10,110 bases of DNA. Source: a virus (lineage: Duplodnaviria > Heunggongvirae > Uroviricota > Caudoviricetes). A model generated the notes under the pieces. The model did no database searches. It worked only from the letters and a program-made list of their open reading frames with translations, and was not told the origin of the DNA. The DNA lies in IMG/VR virus record IMGVR_UViG_3300010280_000146; one strand, given 5' to 3'. A program made the position numbers and the translations under genes. Shown in pieces: positions 1-10,110 of the stretch; the first letter of the stretch is position 1; each line of letters begins with the position of its first letter.

Positions 1-1
1 A

Positions 2-121
2 CATCTGCCGTACGATTTCCTCGGTCGCGTTTCCAACCGCATTATCAATGAAGTGAATGGTATTTCCCGCGTGGTGTATGACATCAGCGGCAAGCCACCA
101 GCGACTATTGAGTGGGAATGA
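2..121 (+). CDS. guaA: GMP synthase, 3' end (partial; 5' part lies upstream of the window)
   Basis: Frame ending at TGA 119-121 translates to [39 protein letters not shown], which I recognise as the conserved C-terminus of enterobacterial GuaA (recalled from memory, not searched). Confidence 0.8.
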
Positions 122-167
122 TTAACAGCTAACTCATAGCAAGTCATTCCTATTCAGATGCTAATTC

Positions 168-200
168 AACCCTCTGTTTTTACAGAGGGTTTTTGTTTTT
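168..200 (+). terminator. Rho-independent terminator downstream of guaA
   Basis: Stem CCCTCTG (170-176) / CAGAGGG (183-189), 6-nt loop, followed by TTTTTGTTTTT (190-200). Confidence 0.6.
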
Positions 201-249
201 ATGTATTCATTTCTATTCACTCTACACCATATTTTTCGGCGGTACAGGT

Positions 250-285
250 GACGGTATTACCTTAAAGGTATACTCTCATACCGTC
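250..285. promoter_or_regulatory. Inverted repeat GACGGTA...TACCGTC enclosing a TTACC-N5-GGTAT operator-like site (257-271) upstream of int
   Basis: Arms at 250-256 and 279-285 are exact reverse complements; the inner 15-mer TTACCTTAAAGGTAT matches the palindrome found in the other promoter regions at 9 of 10 half-site positions. Confidence 0.35.
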
Positions 286-313
286 ATGAAAATGGTTTCT
301 ATACGGGTGAATT

Positions 314-1564
314 GTGCTTACCGATACAAAATTAAAAAACCTCAAGCCGCAGGACAAACTGTACAAGGTCTCCGATCGTGACGGGCTGTATGTAGCTGTT
401 CTTACGTCAGGCACGGTCTCGTTTCGCTACGACTACCGTATCAACGGTCGCCGCGAAACGCTGGTAATCGGGCAGTATGGGCGTGACGGTATCAGCCTGG
501 CAGAAGCGCGAGAAGAACTGATTGCTGCAAAGAAGTTGCTTAAAGCAGGCCAGTCACCGGCTGCGGCTAAACGTGACGGTATCAAAAAGATTCGTGGTGC
601 TGAGACGTTTGCGGTACATACCGACAGTTATATGAAACACGTCATCCTGGCTGAAAGTACCCGCGCAATGAAGCAGGCAGTGATCGACCGTGACATACTT
701 CCTGTTCTTGGCAACAAAATGATGGCTGAAATTACCACATCGATGGTTCGTGATTTGTGTGACCGGATTGTCGAACGCGGTGGCCGGGCAACAGCAGTGC
801 AGGCCAGGGAGATCATCAGCAGCGTATACCGTCACGCCAATGACCGTGGTCATGGTTTGTTTAATCCTGCAGCTGACATTAAACCTTCGTCTATCGCCAT
901 ATTTAAACCACGAGAGCGAACACTGACACCAGAAGAAATTGGCCTGTTCTTCCGCACGTTGGATGCCATTGGTGCTATGGGCACTATGAAAATGGCTTTA
1001 AAGCTGGTGCTTATCACTATGGTTCGTAAAGGCGAATTCACCAATGCAACGTGGGATGAAATAGATTTTAAAAAATGGACATGGACAATTCCTTCAGACC
1101 GCATGAAGGGAAGCCGGGCGCACGTTATTTACCTGCCTAAACAGGCACAGGATATATTGGTCGGGTTGCAGATGTGCGCTGGTGGAAGTGAATATCTGGT
1201 TCCTGGTCGTTACAATTTCCGGAAGCCATTATCTAATGCCGCGCTGAACTCTCTGATCGACAGAACGGTGAAAATAATAAATGAAGATGGTGAGCATATT
1301 CAGGACTTCACTGTACATGATATGCGCCGTACAGCCAGTACATTGTTGCATGAGGCTGGTTATCCTTCAGACTGGATTGAAAAGGCTCTGGCACATGAGC
1401 AGAAAGGTGTGCGCGCCGTATATAACAAAGCGGAATACGCTAGACAGCGCGCCTACATGTTGCAGCAGTGGGCCGATATGATTGATTCCTGGATTAACGG
1501 GGATCATACGGATCTGATTCCGTTCTCCCCGTCGAAGTTTGAGAAGTGGATGGCGGGGGAATAA
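314..1564 (+). CDS. int: Tyrosine recombinase / phage integrase, P4-type (N-terminal arm-binding DUF4102-like domain plus catalytic domain)
   Basis: 416-aa ORF with GTG start. N-terminus LTDTKLKNLKP...LYVAVLTSGTVSFRYDYRINGRRETLVIGQYG is typical of P4-like integrase arm-binding domains; C-terminal HDMRRT (HxxR box) and VRAVYNKAEY (catalytic Tyr region). Sits next to a host gene 3' end. Confidence 0.9.
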   Translation: MLTDTKLKNLKPQDKLYKVSDRDGLYVAVLTSGTVSFRYDYRINGRRETLVIGQYGRDGISLAEAREELIAAKKLLKAGQSPAAAKRDGIKKIRGAETFAVHTDSYMKHVILAESTRAMKQAVIDRDILPVLGNKMMAEITTSMVRDLCDRIVERGGRATAVQAREIISSVYRHANDRGHGLFNPAADIKPSSIAIFKPRERTLTPEEIGLFFRTLDAIGAMGTMKMALKLVLITMVRKGEFTNATWDEIDFKKWTWTIPSDRMKGSRAHVIYLPKQAQDILVGLQMCAGGSEYLVPGRYNFRKPLSNAALNSLIDRTVKIINEDGEHIQDFTVHDMRRTASTLLHEAGYPSDWIEKALAHEQKGVRAVYNKAEYARQRAYMLQQWADMIDSWINGDHTDLIPFSPSKFEKWMAGE

Positions 1565-1567
1565 CGT

Positions 1568-1762
1568 TTAATTATTCTGCTGATTTTCTTCCATCTCGGC
1601 TTCTGCTGCCAGTGATTCAATTTTATCTGCGAATATTGCTGACAGTGTTGCAAATTCAGCATCAGTGACAGCGGGAACAGGAACAAACCTGATCCCGCTG
1701 TGTGCAAGCATGTTTGCAGTTTCAAGGCATTTCCTTAAATCTGCTGGTGATGCCCTGTTCAT
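1568..1762 (-). CDS. Small hypothetical protein (64 aa), translationally coupled to the upstream methyltransferase gene
   Basis: Internal ATG of track ORF 1568..1882 at 1762..1760 forms an ATGA overlap with the methyltransferase stop (1761..1759). Product MNRASPADLRKCLETANMLAHSGIRFVPVPAVTDAEF... has an acidic tail. The track's N-terminal extension overlaps the methyltransferase in another frame and is rejected. Confidence 0.5.
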   Translation of the reverse strand: MNRASPADLRKCLETANMLAHSGIRFVPVPAVTDAEFATLSAIFADKIESLAAEAEMEENQQNN

Positions 1763-2409
1763 GCTGCACGCTCCCGTCCCTGGTTGTCTGTTGGTGACAG
1801 AGGAGCATTGCTGAATGCATTTGTTAATCCGCCAATATACAACGCGTATCCTGGGTGTAGTTGCACGGCCGGGTCTTCGCACTGATTACCCCAAACATCG
1901 AAGCCATGAGACGACTGGCGGGCGAACAGTTCAATGCGAGAAACATCGCCTAACAATTGCACAAGTTTTTCACGAACGATATCTGGTTTTCTTGAATGCT
2001 CAAGCCGCGGTGCGGTAAATGACTGAACGATCCCTGCATTAATGCGCGGAGGTAGTTTTCCCTTAACTGCAAACAGGCAATCTTCACTATTGGCGCGAGT
2101 CATGTGTCCCATACCCATAACCAGTTTATCTGGTTGTCGACTACCACATTTTATCCACGTGAAGCCCTTCATGGTCATCAGACGGAATCCCCAGGCTTCA
2201 ACAACTTTTAGCGCTTCGAGTGGTTGTGTTGGCACCCACCACATGGCCAACAGACAGTTTTCATCGGCCAAATCCCACACAGGAAGGCGGCAGATATCCA
2301 GCACACTCATAACCGGATATTTAAAACCGGCACCGCGATTACCATCTGCGGCTTTGTCCCGGTATACCCAGGGTGGATCTGCATAGATTAGTGTGTATTT
2401 CTTAGTCAT
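1759..2409 (-). CDS. MT-A70 family DNA N6-adenine methyltransferase (phage Dam-like, orphan)
   Basis: 216-aa ORF starting MTKKYTLIYADPPWVY; the DPPW catalytic motif near the N-terminus is characteristic of MT-A70-type amino-methyltransferases. No adjacent restriction endonuclease gene is visible. Confidence 0.85.
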   Translation of the reverse strand: MTKKYTLIYADPPWVYRDKAADGNRGAGFKYPVMSVLDICRLPVWDLADENCLLAMWWVPTQPLEALKVVEAWGFRLMTMKGFTWIKCGSRQPDKLVMGMGHMTRANSEDCLFAVKGKLPPRINAGIVQSFTAPRLEHSRKPDIVREKLVQLLGDVSRIELFARQSSHGFDVWGNQCEDPAVQLHPGYALYIGGLTNAFSNAPLSPTDNQGRERAA

Positions 2410-2701
2410 AAACCACCCCGCAACATCCTATACCGCTATAGTCGCCACGGCGAAGGCCGTTACCTTTTGTGATACATTGGTCCCTGCGAACCGCGATCCT
2501 TGCACGCTCAACATCACCAGAAGCAACATCCATACACTGAAGCCAAAGGTGAGCGGCAATGCGGAACTGCCCTTTTTTTTCTCTTTCAATCGCGCGTTTT
2601 TCGATCTCTATCGCCGCAGGAGTAACGGCGACAATCTTTGACGGACTGCGCATTGAAACCTTATTCATGTGATATTTTTCAAGTCGGCTTAACTTTCTCA
2701 C
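2402..2701 (-). CDS. Hypothetical protein; start uncertain (GTG 2701, ATG 2668 or ATG 2653)
   Basis: ORF ends in an 8-nt overlap with the methyltransferase start (GTTTATGACTAA), suggesting coupling. Charged region AIEIEKRAIEREKKGQFRIAAHLWLQ looks protein-like but the C-terminus is low complexity. No family recognised. Confidence 0.4.
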   Translation of the reverse strand: MRKLSRLEKYHMNKVSMRSPSKIVAVTPAAIEIEKRAIEREKKGQFRIAAHLWLQCMDVASGDVERARIAVRRDQCITKGNGLRRGDYSGIGCCGVVYD

Positions 2702-2810
2702 TTAATCCAACCCTCTCTGAAAATTAATGCCAGCAGATAAAGCCATGCTGAAACAGAGGCCAGGAATAAGTACCATCCTGACCATTTGCTCCAGTGCCTT
2801 AGCAGCGCAC

Positions 2811-3059
2811 TCATGCAGCGTTGCTCACGGGACGATATACACGTTGCTGAACAGGAGGTTTTTTACCCTGGAACTCTGCTGGGCTTGCTGCCTGACGTTC
2901 ATCAAGCCAACGTTCAACTTCATCACGGTTCCATGCGCAGCGTTTATCGGTGATATACCAGCGTTTGGGAAATTCCCCTGCGCGCTCCATACGGTCGATA
3001 GTGCTCCATGACAGTGGCACCACCGCCAGGAGTTCCTTCTTACCTAATGCACCTTTCAT
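2811..3059 (-). CDS. AlpA/Xis-like excisionase-family DNA-binding protein (MerR-type HTH)
   Basis: 82 aa; LSWSTIDRMERAGEFPKRWYITDKRCAWNRDEVERWLDE fits the AlpA/excisionase HTH_17 pattern (STIYR...G.FP.P......W...E...WL). RBS AGAGG lies 6 nt upstream of ATG 3059. Confidence 0.75.
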   Translation of the reverse strand: MKGALGKKELLAVVPLSWSTIDRMERAGEFPKRWYITDKRCAWNRDEVERWLDERQAASPAEFQGKKPPVQQRVYRPVSNAA

Positions 3060-3081
3060 AAATACCTCTTTTGGTTGCAGT

Positions 3082-3100
3082 GCGGCGCGCGTGGCGCCGC
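3082..3100 (-). other. All-GC stem-loop in the bet/xis intergenic region (candidate RNA processing or stability element, not a canonical terminator)
   Basis: GCGGCGC (3082-3088) / GCGCCGC (3094-3100) with 5-nt loop GCGTG. On the transcribed minus strand it sits 9 nt after the bet stop and just upstream of the xis-like RBS, with no U-run after it. Confidence 0.4.
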
Positions 3101-3108
3101 GGTGGTGG

Positions 3109-3990
3109 TTACATAGATGTTTCGTTTAATTCTTCCCGACGAACGCTGTAAACGTCGGTGGCTTTTGCCAGCAGTTCGTCATCATCTGAAAGTTTTTGTG
3201 CAATGTATTTGTAAGCCTTATCCAGTTCGGAGACAGTGCTGTAATTCATCGCTGCGCTGGTAAAGGCCATCAGCATTTCTTCTGGATCACGGCTATCCGC
3301 TTTACGCGTTTGCTCATCAGGCTTTTTCACTGGTTTAGCGTTGATCAGACTGTTCATTCCCGCAGCAGTGGTCGTTTGCGGAGTAATGTCTCGCTCAACG
3401 CGCGGTGCCGTTTCCTGTAATTCGTCTGGGGTGTAAACACCGAGAAGTACATCAGGAGCGTGCAGGCGAGCCCATCGTTTCGTGCAAAGATAGGCAAGTT
3501 GCTGGCGCGGATCCTGTTCCCACAATGGAGAGTTACGCACTCCGGCTTGCGCCATACTGATGGTAAGCTCACGGGGTTCTGCTTCTCCTTTAAGAACTGC
3601 TGACACAGTTACCGTCAGATTCGGTGATTTATCTGTTTTGCCGTTAACATTCGACCAGTCACCGCTCCAGCGATAATTCAGGCGTGTCGCTAGCAGGCTG
3701 GAAGAGGATACGACCGCGTTTACCAACTGTGCTTCGTAGCCTAACGTTCCGTTTACCACATGCGTTTTCTGCGCCACGGCGAAAGGGTTCATTCCCCACT
3801 GTGCCGCCTGCATGGTCACCGCCAGGCAATCGGCAGGTTTGCCTTCAAGATGTTTCGGTACAGTCGCTTTGCTTTGTGACATCAACTCCGCGAAACGCAC
3901 CAGTTGATTCATGCCATCGGGGCTGAAGATTGCCGCAGCAGTGCCCACAGTTGCGCCTGGTTGTGATGTGATTGCGATATCATTGCTCAT
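3109..3990 (-). CDS. Bet/RecT-superfamily single-strand annealing protein (lambda Bet-like recombinase)
   Basis: 293 aa; segments MQAAQWGMNPF, NSPLWEQDP...RWARLHAPDVLLGVYTPDE and ERDITP parallel lambda Bet motifs (QYGLNPW, TGPWQSHP...QCARLAFGFAGIYDKDE, ERDITP) as recalled from memory. ATGA overlap with the upstream exonuclease gene. Confidence 0.85.
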   Translation of the reverse strand: MSNDIAITSQPGATVGTAAAIFSPDGMNQLVRFAELMSQSKATVPKHLEGKPADCLAVTMQAAQWGMNPFAVAQKTHVVNGTLGYEAQLVNAVVSSSSLLATRLNYRWSGDWSNVNGKTDKSPNLTVTVSAVLKGEAEPRELTISMAQAGVRNSPLWEQDPRQQLAYLCTKRWARLHAPDVLLGVYTPDELQETAPRVERDITPQTTTAAGMNSLINAKPVKKPDEQTRKADSRDPEEMLMAFTSAAMNYSTVSELDKAYKYIAQKLSDDDELLAKATDVYSVRREELNETSM

Positions 3991-4808
3991 ACGTACATAT
4001 CCTGTTTACGTGCCCAGTCAGGGCGTTTAATAATTTCCACTCCGCCCCATTCATCGTTGATGCGGCATTCGTGGTAGGTATTCAGATCCCGGCGGAACAG
4101 AGCGTGCCCGGCATCGACATCTGGCGCATCCAGCTCGAACACGCGTACCGGATACCGACCACAATCAATGCTTTCGCTCACGGCAAGAAAGAAAAAACCA
4201 TGCGGCTGACCAGTAACCCTCATTGCGCCTTCGCGGTACATTGCGTCCTGCACGTGGTAGCGGAATTCCTCGATGTGGCGTGCAAAACGGTCCATATCCG
4301 CAACCTTTTTCACGTCGACGATCACGTTGTGCTCGTTCAGCCATTTGTCTGGACGAATTCGGCACAACTCACCCGTTTCTTCATCGTTCCAGTACATTGA
4401 TGCTTCGCAGTAACCAGGTGCTTCCAACATCCAGCGTGCCGCCGGATGAGCCATTGCGCTATCACGCATCAGCTCCAGTTTTCGCCACTGCTCGACATCA
4501 AGTACCGCAATACCCATATCCGTCACATCACGAAGAAATGCTTCTTCGTCAGCTTTACCTTGTTTTGTCCGACGATCGAATTTCGGTGAAACGATGAAGC
4601 GTTTGTCGAATTCTCCAGGTTCCAGAAGCAGGCAGTGCAATGCGGTTCCCATATCCAGTGCAGAATTTTTCTCTTCGTCTTCTGGTGCTGCCTGAATCCA
4701 TTTAAGAAGCGCCGGATTCTTGGCAACCATGTCCAGTTGCGACTTACTCACGCCGTCACCGGCGTGGTAGTCTTCGTTGCTGATGTCGAAATAAATTCCC
4801 GGTTTCAT
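3987..4808 (-). CDS. RecE-like PD-(D/E)XK exonuclease (exodeoxyribonuclease VIII-like; partner of the annealing protein)
   Basis: 273 aa; N-terminal GIYFDISNEDYH and the nuclease core RIRPDKW...VIVDVKKV (D...D/E-x-K) plus YHVQDAMY resemble RecE C-terminal-domain-type nucleases; directly upstream of and coupled to the Bet-like gene. Confidence 0.8.
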   Translation of the reverse strand: MKPGIYFDISNEDYHAGDGVSKSQLDMVAKNPALLKWIQAAPEDEEKNSALDMGTALHCLLLEPGEFDKRFIVSPKFDRRTKQGKADEEAFLRDVTDMGIAVLDVEQWRKLELMRDSAMAHPAARWMLEAPGYCEASMYWNDEETGELCRIRPDKWLNEHNVIVDVKKVADMDRFARHIEEFRYHVQDAMYREGAMRVTGQPHGFFFLAVSESIDCGRYPVRVFELDAPDVDAGHALFRRDLNTYHECRINDEWGGVEIIKRPDWARKQDMYV

Positions 4809-5104
4809 GCCGCGTCCCTCTGCCCATCAAGCTGATCTGCCAGATCCCAGCGGGCGATAATTGCCATTGCCTCTCGCCGGTAGGCATCCATTAGTTCTTC
4901 GAACTCAGGGCTGTCTTTAGCGGCCTCCAGTACTTCCTGGCGAACGCCTTTGCCTGTTACAACGTCGAAAGTTGAGGCCAGTTGATGAAGTCGGATGCTC
5001 TCAATCAGTTCAACTTGTCGGTCATATAGCTGTTCTGACAGGCGGTAGTCCTTGTCGAACGCCAGCATGATTTTTTGAAGATTTTTCTGCTGATTAACGT
5101 TCAT
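4805..5104 (-). CDS. Hypothetical protein (99 aa) first-in-line upstream of the exonuclease gene; function unknown
   Basis: Track ORF 4805..5119; preferred start is ATG 5104 because GGGAGG sits 7 nt upstream. ATGA overlap with the exonuclease start at 4805-4808. Product MNVNQQKNLQKIMLAFDKDYRLSEQLYDRQVELIESIRLHQ..., no family recognised. Confidence 0.6.
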   Translation of the reverse strand: MNVNQQKNLQKIMLAFDKDYRLSEQLYDRQVELIESIRLHQLASTFDVVTGKGVRQEVLEAAKDSPEFEELMDAYRREAMAIIARWDLADQLDGQRDAA

Positions 5105-5106
5105 TA

Positions 5107-5259
5107 TCAGCCCTCCCATATCTCGTTATCGTTGGCCACATCGCGAGCTTCTTTGCTGACGAAAGCCCACTTAATGCCTTCCTGTAAGGTGCGGAACTTC
5201 CAGCTCATGAATCCGCATGCAGTAACACAGTACCAACCGTTGATAATTTTCCACTGCAT
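5107..5259 (-). CDS. Unannotated small ORF (50 aa, Trp/Cys-rich) at the head of the leftward operon
   Basis: Hand-translated: ATG at 5259..5257 to TGA at 5109..5107 gives MQWKIINGWYCVTACGFMSWKFRTLQEGIKWAFVSKEARDVANDNEIWEG. Its stop is 2 nt from the next start (TGAtaATG) and its 3' end carries that gene's RBS. Below the 60-aa track cutoff. Confidence 0.35.
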   Translation of the reverse strand: MQWKIINGWYCVTACGFMSWKFRTLQEGIKWAFVSKEARDVANDNEIWEG

Positions 5260-5278
5260 AACTTGTTACCTCGGTCTG

Positions 5279-5293
5279 TTACCGTTGAGGTAA
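5279..5293. promoter_or_regulatory. Operator-like palindrome TTACC GTTGA GGTAA (leftward early promoter region, site 1)
   Basis: Perfect 5-bp inverted half-sites with a 5-bp spacer; overlaps the putative -10 and start-site region of the leftward promoter. Confidence 0.45.
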
Positions 5294-5321
5294 TAATTAT
5301 GCGTATCTGGTTTGATGTCAA
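5293..5321 (-). promoter_or_regulatory. Putative pL-like sigma70 promoter for the leftward recombination operon
   Basis: Minus-strand -35 TTGACA (plus 5316-5321, perfect consensus), 17-bp spacer, -10 AATTAT (plus 5293-5298); flanked by the two palindromic sites. Confidence 0.4.
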
Positions 5322-5340
5322 TAGATATGAGTTAAAAAAA

Positions 5341-5355
5341 TTACCCGTTAGGTAA
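5341..5355. promoter_or_regulatory. Operator-like palindrome TTACC CGTTA GGTAA (leftward early promoter region, site 2)
   Basis: Perfect inverted half-sites; centre is 62 bp from the centre of site 5279-5293. Confidence 0.45.
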
Positions 5356-5365
5356 TCGAATAGGC

Positions 5366-5390
5366 AATAAAAAAGCCGCCATAAGGCGGC
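5366..5390 (-). terminator. Rho-independent terminator of the repressor-candidate gene
   Basis: On the minus strand: stem GCCGCC / GGCGGC with loop TTAT followed by TTTTTATTG, 23 nt downstream of the stop at 5413-5415. Confidence 0.6.
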
Positions 5391-5412
5391 TTACTTACTG
5401 AAAAATATGATT

Positions 5413-5997
5413 TTATTGTTTGTTTTTTTCGTTCTGGTTGATGACAAATTCAATGTAACTTTCGATCTTTGCCTTCTCTGTTTCAGGTAACAATGCGTAG
5501 CGCGAGCGGTCATAGTTGATAGTTGCAGGGTCATGCGGATGAATCAGTAGTTCATATCCGTGACGCCCGAATGCAGATGCAACATTCTCCAGGGTGGAAA
5601 TGGAAACGCTGACCTCATTGTTTAACAGGCGGCTTATTGTCACCTGGGCGACGCCGGATGCGCGGTGAAGTTTTCCCTGAGTTGAAAGGTCGCGGCTTTC
5701 ACTCATCCAGCGTTCCAGGTTGTGAGCTGCCAGCTGACCAATGTCGCTTGGGCCGACAGGCTGAAAACCTTCCTGAGAAAGCGAGCGATCGATATCAAGC
5801 CAGTTACGGGGTTTATTGGCGGCAGCTTCAATTTTTCGCGCAACCTGGTCGCCGATAACCTTCTTGCCAAGAGCCCAGCGGTTTACCAGATTTGCCTGAG
5901 TTCCAAGTTTTTCTGCCATCCGCGTCTGAACACCATTGAATTCACGGTCGATCAAGTCGTTGAGATTTTGCCTGCGGACGTCCTGGATACTTTTCAT
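5413..5997 (-). CDS. Tandem helix-turn-helix (two XRE-type HTH domains) transcriptional regulator; candidate prophage repressor
   Basis: 194 aa. First HTH around GVQTRMAEKLGTQANLVNRWALGKKVIGDQVARKIEAA, second around LHRASGVAQVTISRLLNNEVSVSISTLENVASAF. No LexA/S24 peptidase motifs seen. Placed like cI, divergent from a Cro-like gene, with its own terminator. Confidence 0.75.
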   Translation of the reverse strand: MKSIQDVRRQNLNDLIDREFNGVQTRMAEKLGTQANLVNRWALGKKVIGDQVARKIEAAANKPRNWLDIDRSLSQEGFQPVGPSDIGQLAAHNLERWMSESRDLSTQGKLHRASGVAQVTISRLLNNEVSVSISTLENVASAFGRHGYELLIHPHDPATINYDRSRYALLPETEKAKIESYIEFVINQNEKNKQ

Positions 5998-6052
5998 TTT
6001 CTGGAAAATCGCCTCATATATGAATCAGTAGATGATTCAATTTAAAGCAATA

Positions 6053-6067
6053 TTACCCAACAGGTAA
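6053..6067. promoter_or_regulatory. Operator-like palindrome TTACC CAACA GGTAA (divergent promoter region, site 1)
   Basis: Perfect inverted half-sites between the repressor-candidate start (5997) and the Cro-like start (6152). Confidence 0.45.
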
Positions 6068-6069
6068 AT

Positions 6070-6084
6070 GCACCCCATAGGTAA
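6070..6084. promoter_or_regulatory. Degenerate operator-like site GCACC CCATA GGTAA (divergent promoter region, site 2)
   Basis: Right half-site perfect, left half-site 3 of 5; centre 17 bp from site 1. Confidence 0.3.
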
Positions 6085-6090
6085 CTATCC

Positions 6091-6127
6091 TTGATTTTTG
6101 TTACCTTATGGGTGAATATTTATTATC
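6091..6127 (+). promoter_or_regulatory. Putative pR-like promoter for the Cro-like gene (element assignment ambiguous)
   Basis: Candidate -35 TTGATT (6091-6096) or TTGTTA (6099-6104) with -10 TATTAT (6121-6126, 16-bp spacer from the latter); overlaps operator-like site 3. Confidence 0.3.
6101..6115. promoter_or_regulatory. Operator-like site TTACC TTATG GGTGA (divergent promoter region, site 3)
   Basis: Left half-site perfect, right half-site 4 of 5; overlaps the candidate rightward promoter. Confidence 0.35.
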
Positions 6128-6151
6128 TGAAATAAATATCAGGCAATAGCT

Positions 6152-6382
6152 ATGAGCGATAACGGACATTTCGATTTCAAAAAGCACTGGCTTGCACTTA
6201 CTCCGGATGAGCGTGAAGCCTTCGCACAGGAAGCCGGAACGACGAGTCACTATATCCAGACTCACTTAACAGGTAAGCGCAAAATGCCAGGTAAGGTATT
6301 GATGAATGGGCTTTTTAAAGCCTGTAAAACAAGACAATGGCTGCGCTCAAAAGCGGAACTGGCATACTTCTTCTACTCATGA
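6152..6382 (+). CDS. Cro/YdaS-like small HTH regulator
   Basis: 76 aa; LTPDEREAFAQEAGTTSHYIQTHLTGKRKMPGKVLMNGLFKACK fits Cro/CI-type and YdaS-like HTH proteins. Divergent from the repressor candidate and followed by a terminator. Confidence 0.7.
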   Translation: MSDNGHFDFKKHWLALTPDEREAFAQEAGTTSHYIQTHLTGKRKMPGKVLMNGLFKACKTRQWLRSKAELAYFFYS

Positions 6383-6403
6383 TATCTGGCAACAACCCTC
6401 TGT

Positions 6404-6427
6404 AGACCGCCATCCGGCGGTCTTTTC
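6404..6427 (+). terminator. Rho-independent terminator directly after the Cro-like gene
   Basis: Stem AGACCGCC (6404-6411) / GGCGGTCT (6416-6423), loop ATCC, then a short T-run (6424-6426). Confidence 0.55.
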
Positions 6428-6437
6428 ATATCTATTC

Positions 6438-6452
6438 GTACCTCAAAGGTAA
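6438..6452. promoter_or_regulatory. Operator-like site GTACC TCAAA GGTAA upstream of the replication operon
   Basis: 9 of 10 half-site positions match TTACC/GGTAA; lies between the cro terminator and the 66-aa gene, followed by a TTGATA -35-like hexamer at 6470-6475. Confidence 0.3.
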
Positions 6453-6532
6453 TAAAAAACCAAATCTGGTTGATATTTTTTTTGTGTCAGCACAAAATAA
6501 CCGTAATCCCAATACTAATAACAGGGCTTACC

Positions 6533-6733
6533 ATGGAAATCATTACACGTATTGATGCCGCAAAGCGCGGACTTAAACGCTACTACACCGGAAAACCATG
6601 TAAGCACGGACATGACAGTGAACGCTGGGTTTACAACGGACACTGTGTTGAGTGCACCATGGAATCAAACCGTCGCATCAGGGCAGAGATTAAGCAGATC
6701 ATGATTAATTCCTCCCCACAACATTCAAGCTGA
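6533..6733 (+). CDS. Small Cys/His-containing (putative zinc-binding) protein at the cII-equivalent position
   Basis: Preferred internal ATG 6533 of track ORF 6470..6733. 66 aa, MEIITRIDAAKRGLKRYYTGKPCKHGHDSERWVYNGHCVECT..., with a C-x-H-x-H ... C-x-x-C arrangement. The track's upstream extension is hydrophobic and lies in promoter DNA. Confidence 0.55.
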   Translation: MEIITRIDAAKRGLKRYYTGKPCKHGHDSERWVYNGHCVECTMESNRRIRAEIKQIMINSSPQHSS

Positions 6734-9732: not shown

Positions 9733-10110
9733 CTATCAGGCACTGCGTGAAAAGGCAGAGCGTGCAATTCCGGCAATGGAACGCCTGTTAATGTTGCCAG
9801 TTGATGATGATCTGATAAGCGAACAGGAACTTAAAGATTACGGTGTGGATATTGATGCGCTCAACGCCTTCAAATTTCTGACCGGACCAGAAACCGTGCA
9901 GGCGCTGCTGGATGAACGGGAAAGAAACCAGCAATACATCAAACGCCGTGACCAGGAGAACGAGGATATTGCGCTAACGGTTGGGAGGCTGCTAATCGAA
10001 AACGGCCAGCTTGTTGCCGATACGCTACGCCACTTAGCTGATAACGAAATCGACTCTGATTATTTTGCTATCACCTCAACGAATGAGAACGGTACTGAAA
10101 TTGATCATGA
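9719..10110 (+). CDS. Hypothetical protein, 3'-truncated by the window edge (not in the ORF track because no stop is reached)
   Basis: GTG 9719 with AAGGAGG (9706-9712) 6 nt upstream; open frame to the window end, hand-translated as MSKIDYQALREKAERAIPAMERLLMLPVDDDLISEQELKDYGVDIDALNAF.... Start overlaps the previous gene by 14 nt. Possible resemblance to Ead/Ea22-like N-termini is only a weak recollection. Confidence 0.5.
   Translation, partial: MSKIDYQALREKAERAIPAMERLLMLPVDDDLISEQELKDYGVDIDALNAFKFLTGPETVQALLDERERNQQYIKRRDQENEDIALTVGRLLIENGQLVADTLRHLADNEIDSDYFAITSTNENGTEIDH

Follow-up and report, generated by a model that had tools for sequence, protein, structure and literature searches.

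The integration of uetakeviruses, the podoviruses that resemble phiV10 and epsilon15, has been described at nucleotide level for vB_EcoP_ZX5. In this phage, a 17-mer, ATTGAGTGGGAATGATT, is the core of attP and lies 190 bp upstream of the integrase gene, while the same 17-mer at the 3′ end of guaA is attB, and attB, attL, and attR have all been verified by PCR and Sanger sequencing (PMC9782041). This 17-mer is also stated to be the proved attP of phiV10 and epsilon15 (PMC9782041). The ORF12 integrase of ZX5 is reported to have a verified effect on the lytic-lysogenic cycle, and the verified proteins comprise the integrase, the repressor, and the anti-repressor (PMC9782041). The phiV10-like phage TL-2011b sits within guaA as well (PMC3293862). 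The site is also occupied by a genomic island, GIsul2, an element with int and alpA whose integration point in the guaA 3′ end is GAGTGGGA (PMC9376610).

The window analysed here, a stretch of 10,110 nucleotides, opens with the end of guaA, and we consider it highly probable that its first 313 bases are the attL of a Uetakevirus (phiV10/epsilon15-like podovirus) prophage lodged in the extreme 3′ end of that gene. The coordinates of the features are collected in Table 1. Host DNA makes up window bases 2-106, with bases 107-121 falling within the att core, and from base 124 the order is a 44-nt spacer, a terminator at 168-191, candidate arm-type Int sites, and int, which begins about 115 bp past the terminator T tract. 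On the evidence of the alignments described below, everything from base 124 onward, terminator included, is phage DNA. A first-pass annotation of this DNA had recognised the last 39 codons of guaA, its terminator, and int within about 115 bp, and had proposed an integrative element at the guaA end; the features are all in place, and the junction itself recurs widely. In 5,426 of 5,426 complete E. coli genomes, the match to window 2-121 is underlain by annotated guaA, and the guaA junction is occupied in 568 of the 5,426 (10.5%). No tRNA or tmRNA gene that might serve as a target was found in the window.

Compared with isolated uetakeviruses (phiV10, phiv142-3, PAS61, and others), the window is 97-98% identical over 87-91% of its length, while the closest full match to window 1-1600 is E23. 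Members of the genus (phiV10, vB_EcoP_ZX5, phiv142-3, PAS61, and epsilon15) carry the identical 17-bp attP core 190 bp upstream of int, as is the case here, and have the terminator, arm-type sites, integrase, AlpA-like gene, and repressor in common with the window, together with integration at the guaA 3′ end. Window 107-313 differs from its relatives by few bases (98.2% identity to phiV10, 100% to HEMP4), with epsilon15 being only about 84% identical across the att region. The junction is thus an ordinary prophage junction of a kind already described, and current understanding is unchanged by it, the att core and the integration site having been published. The window stops at position 10,110, and what is said below of attR, of the structural genes, and of the intactness of the prophage is drawn from near-identical lysogens.

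Table 1. Features of the guaA junction and the adjoining early region, in window coordinates
Feature	Position	Strand	Basis or remark
guaA (GMP synthase) 3′ end	2-121	+	In-frame translation; 39 last codons, TGA stop at 119-121
att common core, ATTGAGTGGGAATGATT	107-123	+	Overlap of phage and empty-site matches; Ile-Glu-Trp-Glu-stop plus TT
Predicted RNA hairpin	108-157	+	guaA stop-codon region (core) paired with phage spacer TCATTCCTATTCA
Phage 44-nt spacer, start of P′ arm	124-167	+	In all free phage genomes, absent from empty sites
Phage rho-independent terminator	168-199	+	Stem 168-177/182-191, then T tract
Candidate arm-type Int site TGACGGTAT (P′ arm, +142 from core)	249-257	+	Conserved in phiV10, epsilon15, BUCT711, and Tyrion
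Candidate arm-type site, inverted (+171)	278-286	-	9-mer copy, just upstream of int
P4-type tyrosine integrase, 416 aa, GTG start	314-1564	+	Pfam domains, PHROG 1 integrase, P4 Int alignment
Candidate arm-type site in int coding region (+377)	484-492	+	epsilon15 annotation as integrase binding site
Candidate arm-type site in int coding region (+467)	574-582	+	9-mer copy; epsilon15 annotation
Further inverted 9-mer copy inside int	826-834	-	Only in E. coli phages among those examined
Leftward early gene block: DUF1382, MT-A70 methylase, PerC-like, AlpA-like, RecT, PD-(D/E)XK nuclease, small ORFs	1568-5259	-	Convergent with int
AlpA/Vis-family small DNA-binding protein, 82 aa, candidate excisionase (recombination directionality factor)	2811-3059	-	PF05930, PHROG 66

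The limits of the core are set by two kinds of match that overlap. In a search with the whole window, free phage genomes align starting at base 107, and nearly all of the 36 phage records that match the query 95-330 begin at that base as well, the few exceptions being prophage extracts with guaA in them and records whose own first base is where the match begins. At empty E. coli sites, the match with the window ends at base 123, with a different spacer thereafter. The shared core is therefore 107-123, and the crossover lies inside it, within the guaA coding end. We aligned the window as attL, K-12 as attB, phiV10 as attP, and the far prophage end in MCJCHV-1 as attR, and the only block common to all four ahead of the terminator is the 17-bp core. 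The first-pass annotation had placed the crossover at about 200-313, which is contradicted by phage matches that begin at 107 and matches to empty sites that end at 123.

The far end of the prophage was followed in two complete lysogen genomes, in which the core-to-core distance is 40,661 bp (MCJCHV-1) and 39,661 bp (E23). Both lysogens have podovirus structural genes, and in both, attR consists of the Rz/Rz1-side phage arm, which reads ...CGTAAATA before the core, the core itself, and then a native K-12-type spacer, the native terminator, and yfgI. The native E. coli spacer that follows the core is TGAC(C/T)CTGCACTATGAATGAACAA, and it leads to a native terminator with the loop TACT and then to yfgI. 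At a length of at least 10 nt, the two E23 junctions share the 17-bp core, the terminator halves (11 + 14 nt), and the arm motif GGTGACGGTAT, and nothing else. Segment 122-313, whose repetition at the far boundary the first-pass annotation had anticipated, is thus not found there again, and what is repeated is limited to the core, the terminator halves, and one arm-type site. Within the window, which is too short to contain attR, no second copy of the core was found in a search allowing up to three mismatches.

A Klebsiella lysogen, represented by a K. pneumoniae prophage record, narrows the crossover further. Its attL carries the full phage core, ending ...GAA TGA TT, and in attR of the same record GTAATCC comes after ATTGAGTGGGA, giving the GAG TAA with which guaA natively ends in Klebsiella. 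Because this attR keeps only ATTGAGTGGGA of the core, the exchange would be confined to ATTGAGTGGGA, and strand exchange most likely takes place within these bases (107-117), with which the GIsul2 core GAGTGGGA agrees (PMC9376610). Judged from the two ends of this record, the phage replaces the last Klebsiella Glu codon synonymously and swaps the stop codon, GAG TAA becoming GAA TGA. The suggestion, made as a fallback in the first-pass annotation, that the element brings a replacement guaA 3′ end is therefore seen directly in this lysogen. The two partners have the same core in E. coli, where guaA is therefore rebuilt exactly and remains unchanged. In the mechanism that we propose, the P4-type integrase would recombine the 17-bp core of attP with the identical last four guaA codons, stop codon, and two following bases of the host. 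In a host such as Klebsiella, whose guaA end is not the same, the final codon and the stop would come from the phage. The core is flanked by partial copies of itself. In the spacer of the window, TCATTCCTATTCA at 144-156 is an imperfect inverted copy of the core, and in phiV10 attP, CACTCAATTG, about 20 nt to the left of the core, repeats its left end, ATTGAGTG, in inverted orientation (L002 1472-1508). The counterpart on the other side, at a distance of 22 nt, repeats the right end of the core, likewise inverted, so that the core-like repeats of attP are roughly symmetrical.

The phage DNA that follows the core carries a terminator of its own. A 10-bp stem, closed by a 4-nt loop and followed by a T tail, makes up the hairpin at 168-191; its predicted folding energy is -16 kcal/mol (z = -5.4), and none of 200 shuffled sequences folded as well. 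The records of phiV10 and epsilon15 annotate the equivalent hairpin as a rho-independent terminator, located between the lysis genes and int. The stem of the phage hairpin, AACCCTCTGT/ACAGAGGGTT, matches base for base that of the guaA terminator native to E. coli and K. pneumoniae (compared in E. coli K-12, L001 1647-1670, and in K. pneumoniae attR, L128 about 417-440), and the phage hairpin therefore passed for the intact host terminator in the first-pass annotation. Its sequence belongs to the phage, in agreement with the annotation of phiV10 and epsilon15. The surroundings of the stem differ between phage and host: the loop is TTTT in the phage, TACT in the E. coli chromosome, and GTTT in K. 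pneumoniae; a different spacer, of 24 nt, follows the core at empty E. coli sites; and the distance from core to terminator is 44 nt in the phage vs 24-26 nt in E. coli. The phage version of the terminator does not vary among uetakeviruses of Escherichia, Salmonella, Klebsiella, and Enterobacter, and uetakevirus prophages are also found in hosts with another native terminator (IMG/VR loci L169, L170, L177, and L241). From these comparisons we infer that the 10-bp stem shared by phage and host reflects common ancestry, chance being very unlikely, and its origin would most simply be a capture of host sequence by an ancestral phage.

It follows from the four att sequences that integration swaps two equivalent terminators. 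In the free phage, the terminator stands after the lysis genes, and once integrated it stands after guaA and ends the guaBA transcript, while the lysis genes at attR gain the native guaA terminator, leaving both transcription units terminated. The terminator that now ends the guaBA transcript thus belongs to the phage, and it may shield int and the prophage from guaBA read-through. Recombination between the look-alike terminators would leave a phage spacer without int, and there was no sign of such scars among the E. coli matches, whose coverage drops straight from full to 36% in a non-exhaustive survey.

A second structure is predicted in RNA that spans the stop codon of guaA, with the core pairing to the phage spacer (Table 1). 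This hairpin, at 108-157, is predicted to contain 16+5 pairs and would exist only in transcripts of attP and attL. Among six sequences, variation in the phage arm of the hairpin mostly places C or U opposite G, combinations that pair in RNA and not in DNA. The changes seen in these six sequences are one-sided only, and the invariance of the core, which forms one arm, leaves no room for compensatory covariation. The epsilon15 record calls the equivalent region an RNase III site. It can be speculated, as a reading that is somewhat improbable on present evidence, that segment 124-199 is a captured and functionally maintained mimic of the host guaA 3′ UTR, and that, through the stop-region hairpin, the phage subjects the guaA mRNA to processing at its end, by RNase III for instance, which would occur in lysogens alone. 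Neither the identity of the phage and native terminator stems nor the hairpin at the guaA stop was found described in the literature examined, which did not extend to the original epsilon15 and phiV10 genome papers.

How the junction is to be read can be considered with these structures in hand. The native 10-bp stem of the hairpin at 168-191 makes it resemble an intact host terminator when the sequence is viewed in isolation, and would accommodate a crossover at about 200-313, downstream of a native guaA terminator that was kept. This is extremely unlikely, as free phage genomes already hold bases 107-313, terminator included, empty sites diverge from the window at base 124, with a 24-nt and not a 44-nt spacer and a different loop, and attR has the native spacer and terminator directly after the core. 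The probability that int and guaA are adjacent through an assembly artefact is vanishingly small: no point in its favour was found, the junction is the same in 568 complete genomes, and that of ZX5 was confirmed by PCR and Sanger sequencing (PMC9782041).

The nature of the element and its state in this genome can be questioned as well. GIsul2 uses the same guaA site, GAGTGGGA, and carries int and alpA (PMC9376610), and int homologues with 42-54% identity lie 290-370 nt past the same core in 32 of about 109 loci among the matches listed, which would suit a GIsul2-type guaA island or a P4-like satellite in place of a phage. The 97-98% identity of the 10-kb window to isolated uetakeviruses over 87-91% of its length, and a spacer and terminator of the uetakevirus type, not of the GTCTGGCA/GCCCGC island type, make an element of this kind very improbable. 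It is also unlikely, if less remotely so, that a genuine junction here belongs to a defective prophage, either decayed or reduced to its left end. The visible sequence amounts to 10 kb alone, and several frameshifted or partial genes, DnaT-like and DUF551 among them, are annotated in the E23 prophage; however, the int, AlpA-like, recT, nuclease, repressor, and replication genes of the window are open, full-length ORFs, and lysogens with the same attL harbor full prophages of 39.7-40.7 kb with attR. We thus retain the attL of a Uetakevirus prophage as the reading of this junction in what follows.

The integrase was classed as P4-type in the first-pass annotation, and both its domains and its full-length alignment with P4 Int bear this out. 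Three domains score above the Pfam cut-offs, an N-terminal Arm-DNA-bind_3 (DUF4102; PF13356, 72 bits), a central, SAM-like Phage_int_M (PF22022, 47 bits), and a C-terminal catalytic Phage_integrase (PF00589, 71 bits), and the alignment with P4 Int spans the full length, with 28% identity over 409 aa (E = 9e-42). Arg238, His335, Arg338, His361, and Tyr370 align with the catalytic residues of P4 Int (R..HxxR..H..Y), and phiV10 is annotated with the same 1,251-bp int gene. The candidate arm-type sites are copies of the 9-mer TGACGGTAT, which occurs five times in the window, always within 249-834, vs 0.04 occurrences expected, while a sixth copy is located in the other arm, 80 bp to the left of the core (attP, attR). 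The offsets -80, +142, +171 (inverted), +377, and +467 are conserved in phiV10, epsilon15, the Klebsiella phage BUCT711, and the Enterobacter phage Tyrion, save that Tyrion is without the inverted +171 copy, and the region is only 75-85% identical among these four phages. The epsilon15 record annotates the sites equivalent to the candidate arm-type sites as integrase binding sites. The copies at 484-492 and 574-582 both encode the peptide RDGI with identical codons (CGTGACGGTATC), such that the protein repeat and the DNA site are one and the same.

The copies at 249-257 and 278-286 bracket a TATACT hexamer, read from the sequence at 268-273 just upstream of int. No consensus sigma-70 promoter for int was scored in 1-2000. 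Binding of Int to the candidate sites that bracket the region upstream of its gene may autoregulate int by repression.

Convergent with int is a leftward early gene block whose annotation matches phiV10 and the lysogens. The stop codon of int and the convergent stop of DUF1382 are 3 bp apart (1564-1568), with no terminator-like hairpin between them, so that early transcripts made leftward would continue into int, antisense to it, in the direction of guaA. A promoter-like (PL-like) site at 5321-5293 is placed at the leftward block on its position only, and promoters and terminators are no more numerous in 1500-6600 than expected by chance. The excision factor is probably the AlpA/Vis-like protein encoded in this block, to judge by its homology. 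This small protein of the winged-helix type scores 24.2 bits against PF05930 (Phage_AlpA), for which the cut-off is 21, matches PHROG 66, "excisionase and transcriptional regulator" (E = 2e-16), and is 38% identical to P4 Vis over 50 aa (E = 6e-10). Mosaicism is seen in the early region; for example, RecT (293 aa) and the PD-(D/E)XK nuclease (273 aa) are here separate, overlapping genes on the minus strand at 3109-4808, where phiV10 is annotated with a single 1,761-bp RecE-RecT fusion.

The target itself is widespread. Conservation of the C-terminal IEWE-stop of GMP synthase is strong enough for the 17-mer to recur at the guaA end across bacterial phyla and in some archaea, and the guaA site therefore acts like a tRNA-gene target that is common to phages and genomic islands. 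Among the matches listed (L008-L127), the exact 17-mer ends guaA (...KPPxTIEWE*) in Alpha-, Beta-, and Gammaproteobacteria, Clostridia, cyanobacteria, and archaea. The roughly 109 loci come from species-representative genomes, with Escherichia, Salmonella, and Klebsiella loci not being among the matches listed, and in the 32 that have a full-length int homologue, the homologue lies on the same strand as the core. From these sequence matches, a single integrase clade appears to use the guaA end as a hotspot for integration in many phyla. In gamma- and betaproteobacterial guaA islands with a related integrase, an intrinsic terminator is found 42-46 nt after the core, at an offset as in the phage (L024, L025, L033, L037, L040, L051, L061, L076, and L077), and most alphaproteobacterial guaA islands are without a terminator after the core. 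In three IMG/VR loci (L138, L155, and L193), a uetakevirus right arm and core are followed directly by the left end of a GIsul2-like island (TCGCGTCTGGCA...) and not by host DNA, which implies that phage and island occupy the guaA site in tandem. The practical value of the analysis lies in correct annotation, the prophage boundary falling at 107/123 inside the guaA coding end and not past the terminator.

Of the known systems, GIsul2 shares the chromosomal target of the window, and its core GAGTGGGA lies inside the 17-mer of the window. The guaA islands of many Proteobacteria encode homologous integrases of up to 54% identity in the same geometry as in the window. They differ in their cargo, which consists of resistance and mobilisation genes and not of virion genes, in a GTCTGGCA-like spacer and arm motif, and in a GCCCGC-type terminator stem. 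The left end of the window is accordingly not that of a GIsul2-type element, with its GTCTGGCA-rich spacer and GCCCGC terminator, but has a spacer and terminator of the uetakevirus type followed by phage early genes.

P4 is similar to the window in its integration module. The domain architecture of P4 Int is the same as that of the window integrase; the P4 core is located about 150 bp upstream of int, with int reading away from it, compared with about 190 bp and the same direction in the window; and the arm repeats of P4 lie between core and int and inside the 5′ end of int, as do the candidate sites here. Vis, the AlpA-family protein of P4, is encoded apart from int, as is its counterpart in the window. 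The two differ in the sequences of core and arm repeats and in their carriers, P4 being a satellite whereas the carrier of the window is a full podovirus. P4 targets the 3′ end of a tRNA-Leu gene, unlike the window, whose target is the 3′ end of a protein-coding gene.

Lambda likewise combines a tyrosine integrase with arm-type and core-type sites, and the predicted RNA hairpin of the window can be likened to a structured RNA element that spans att in lambda, known there as sib. The gene order differs. In lambda, int and xis are adjacent and transcribed toward att, whereas in the window the xis candidate lies 1.2 kb from int on the minus strand. As the first-pass annotation correctly observed, int here, unlike that of lambda, reads away from attL and converges on the leftward block that holds the Vis/AlpA-type excisionase candidate.
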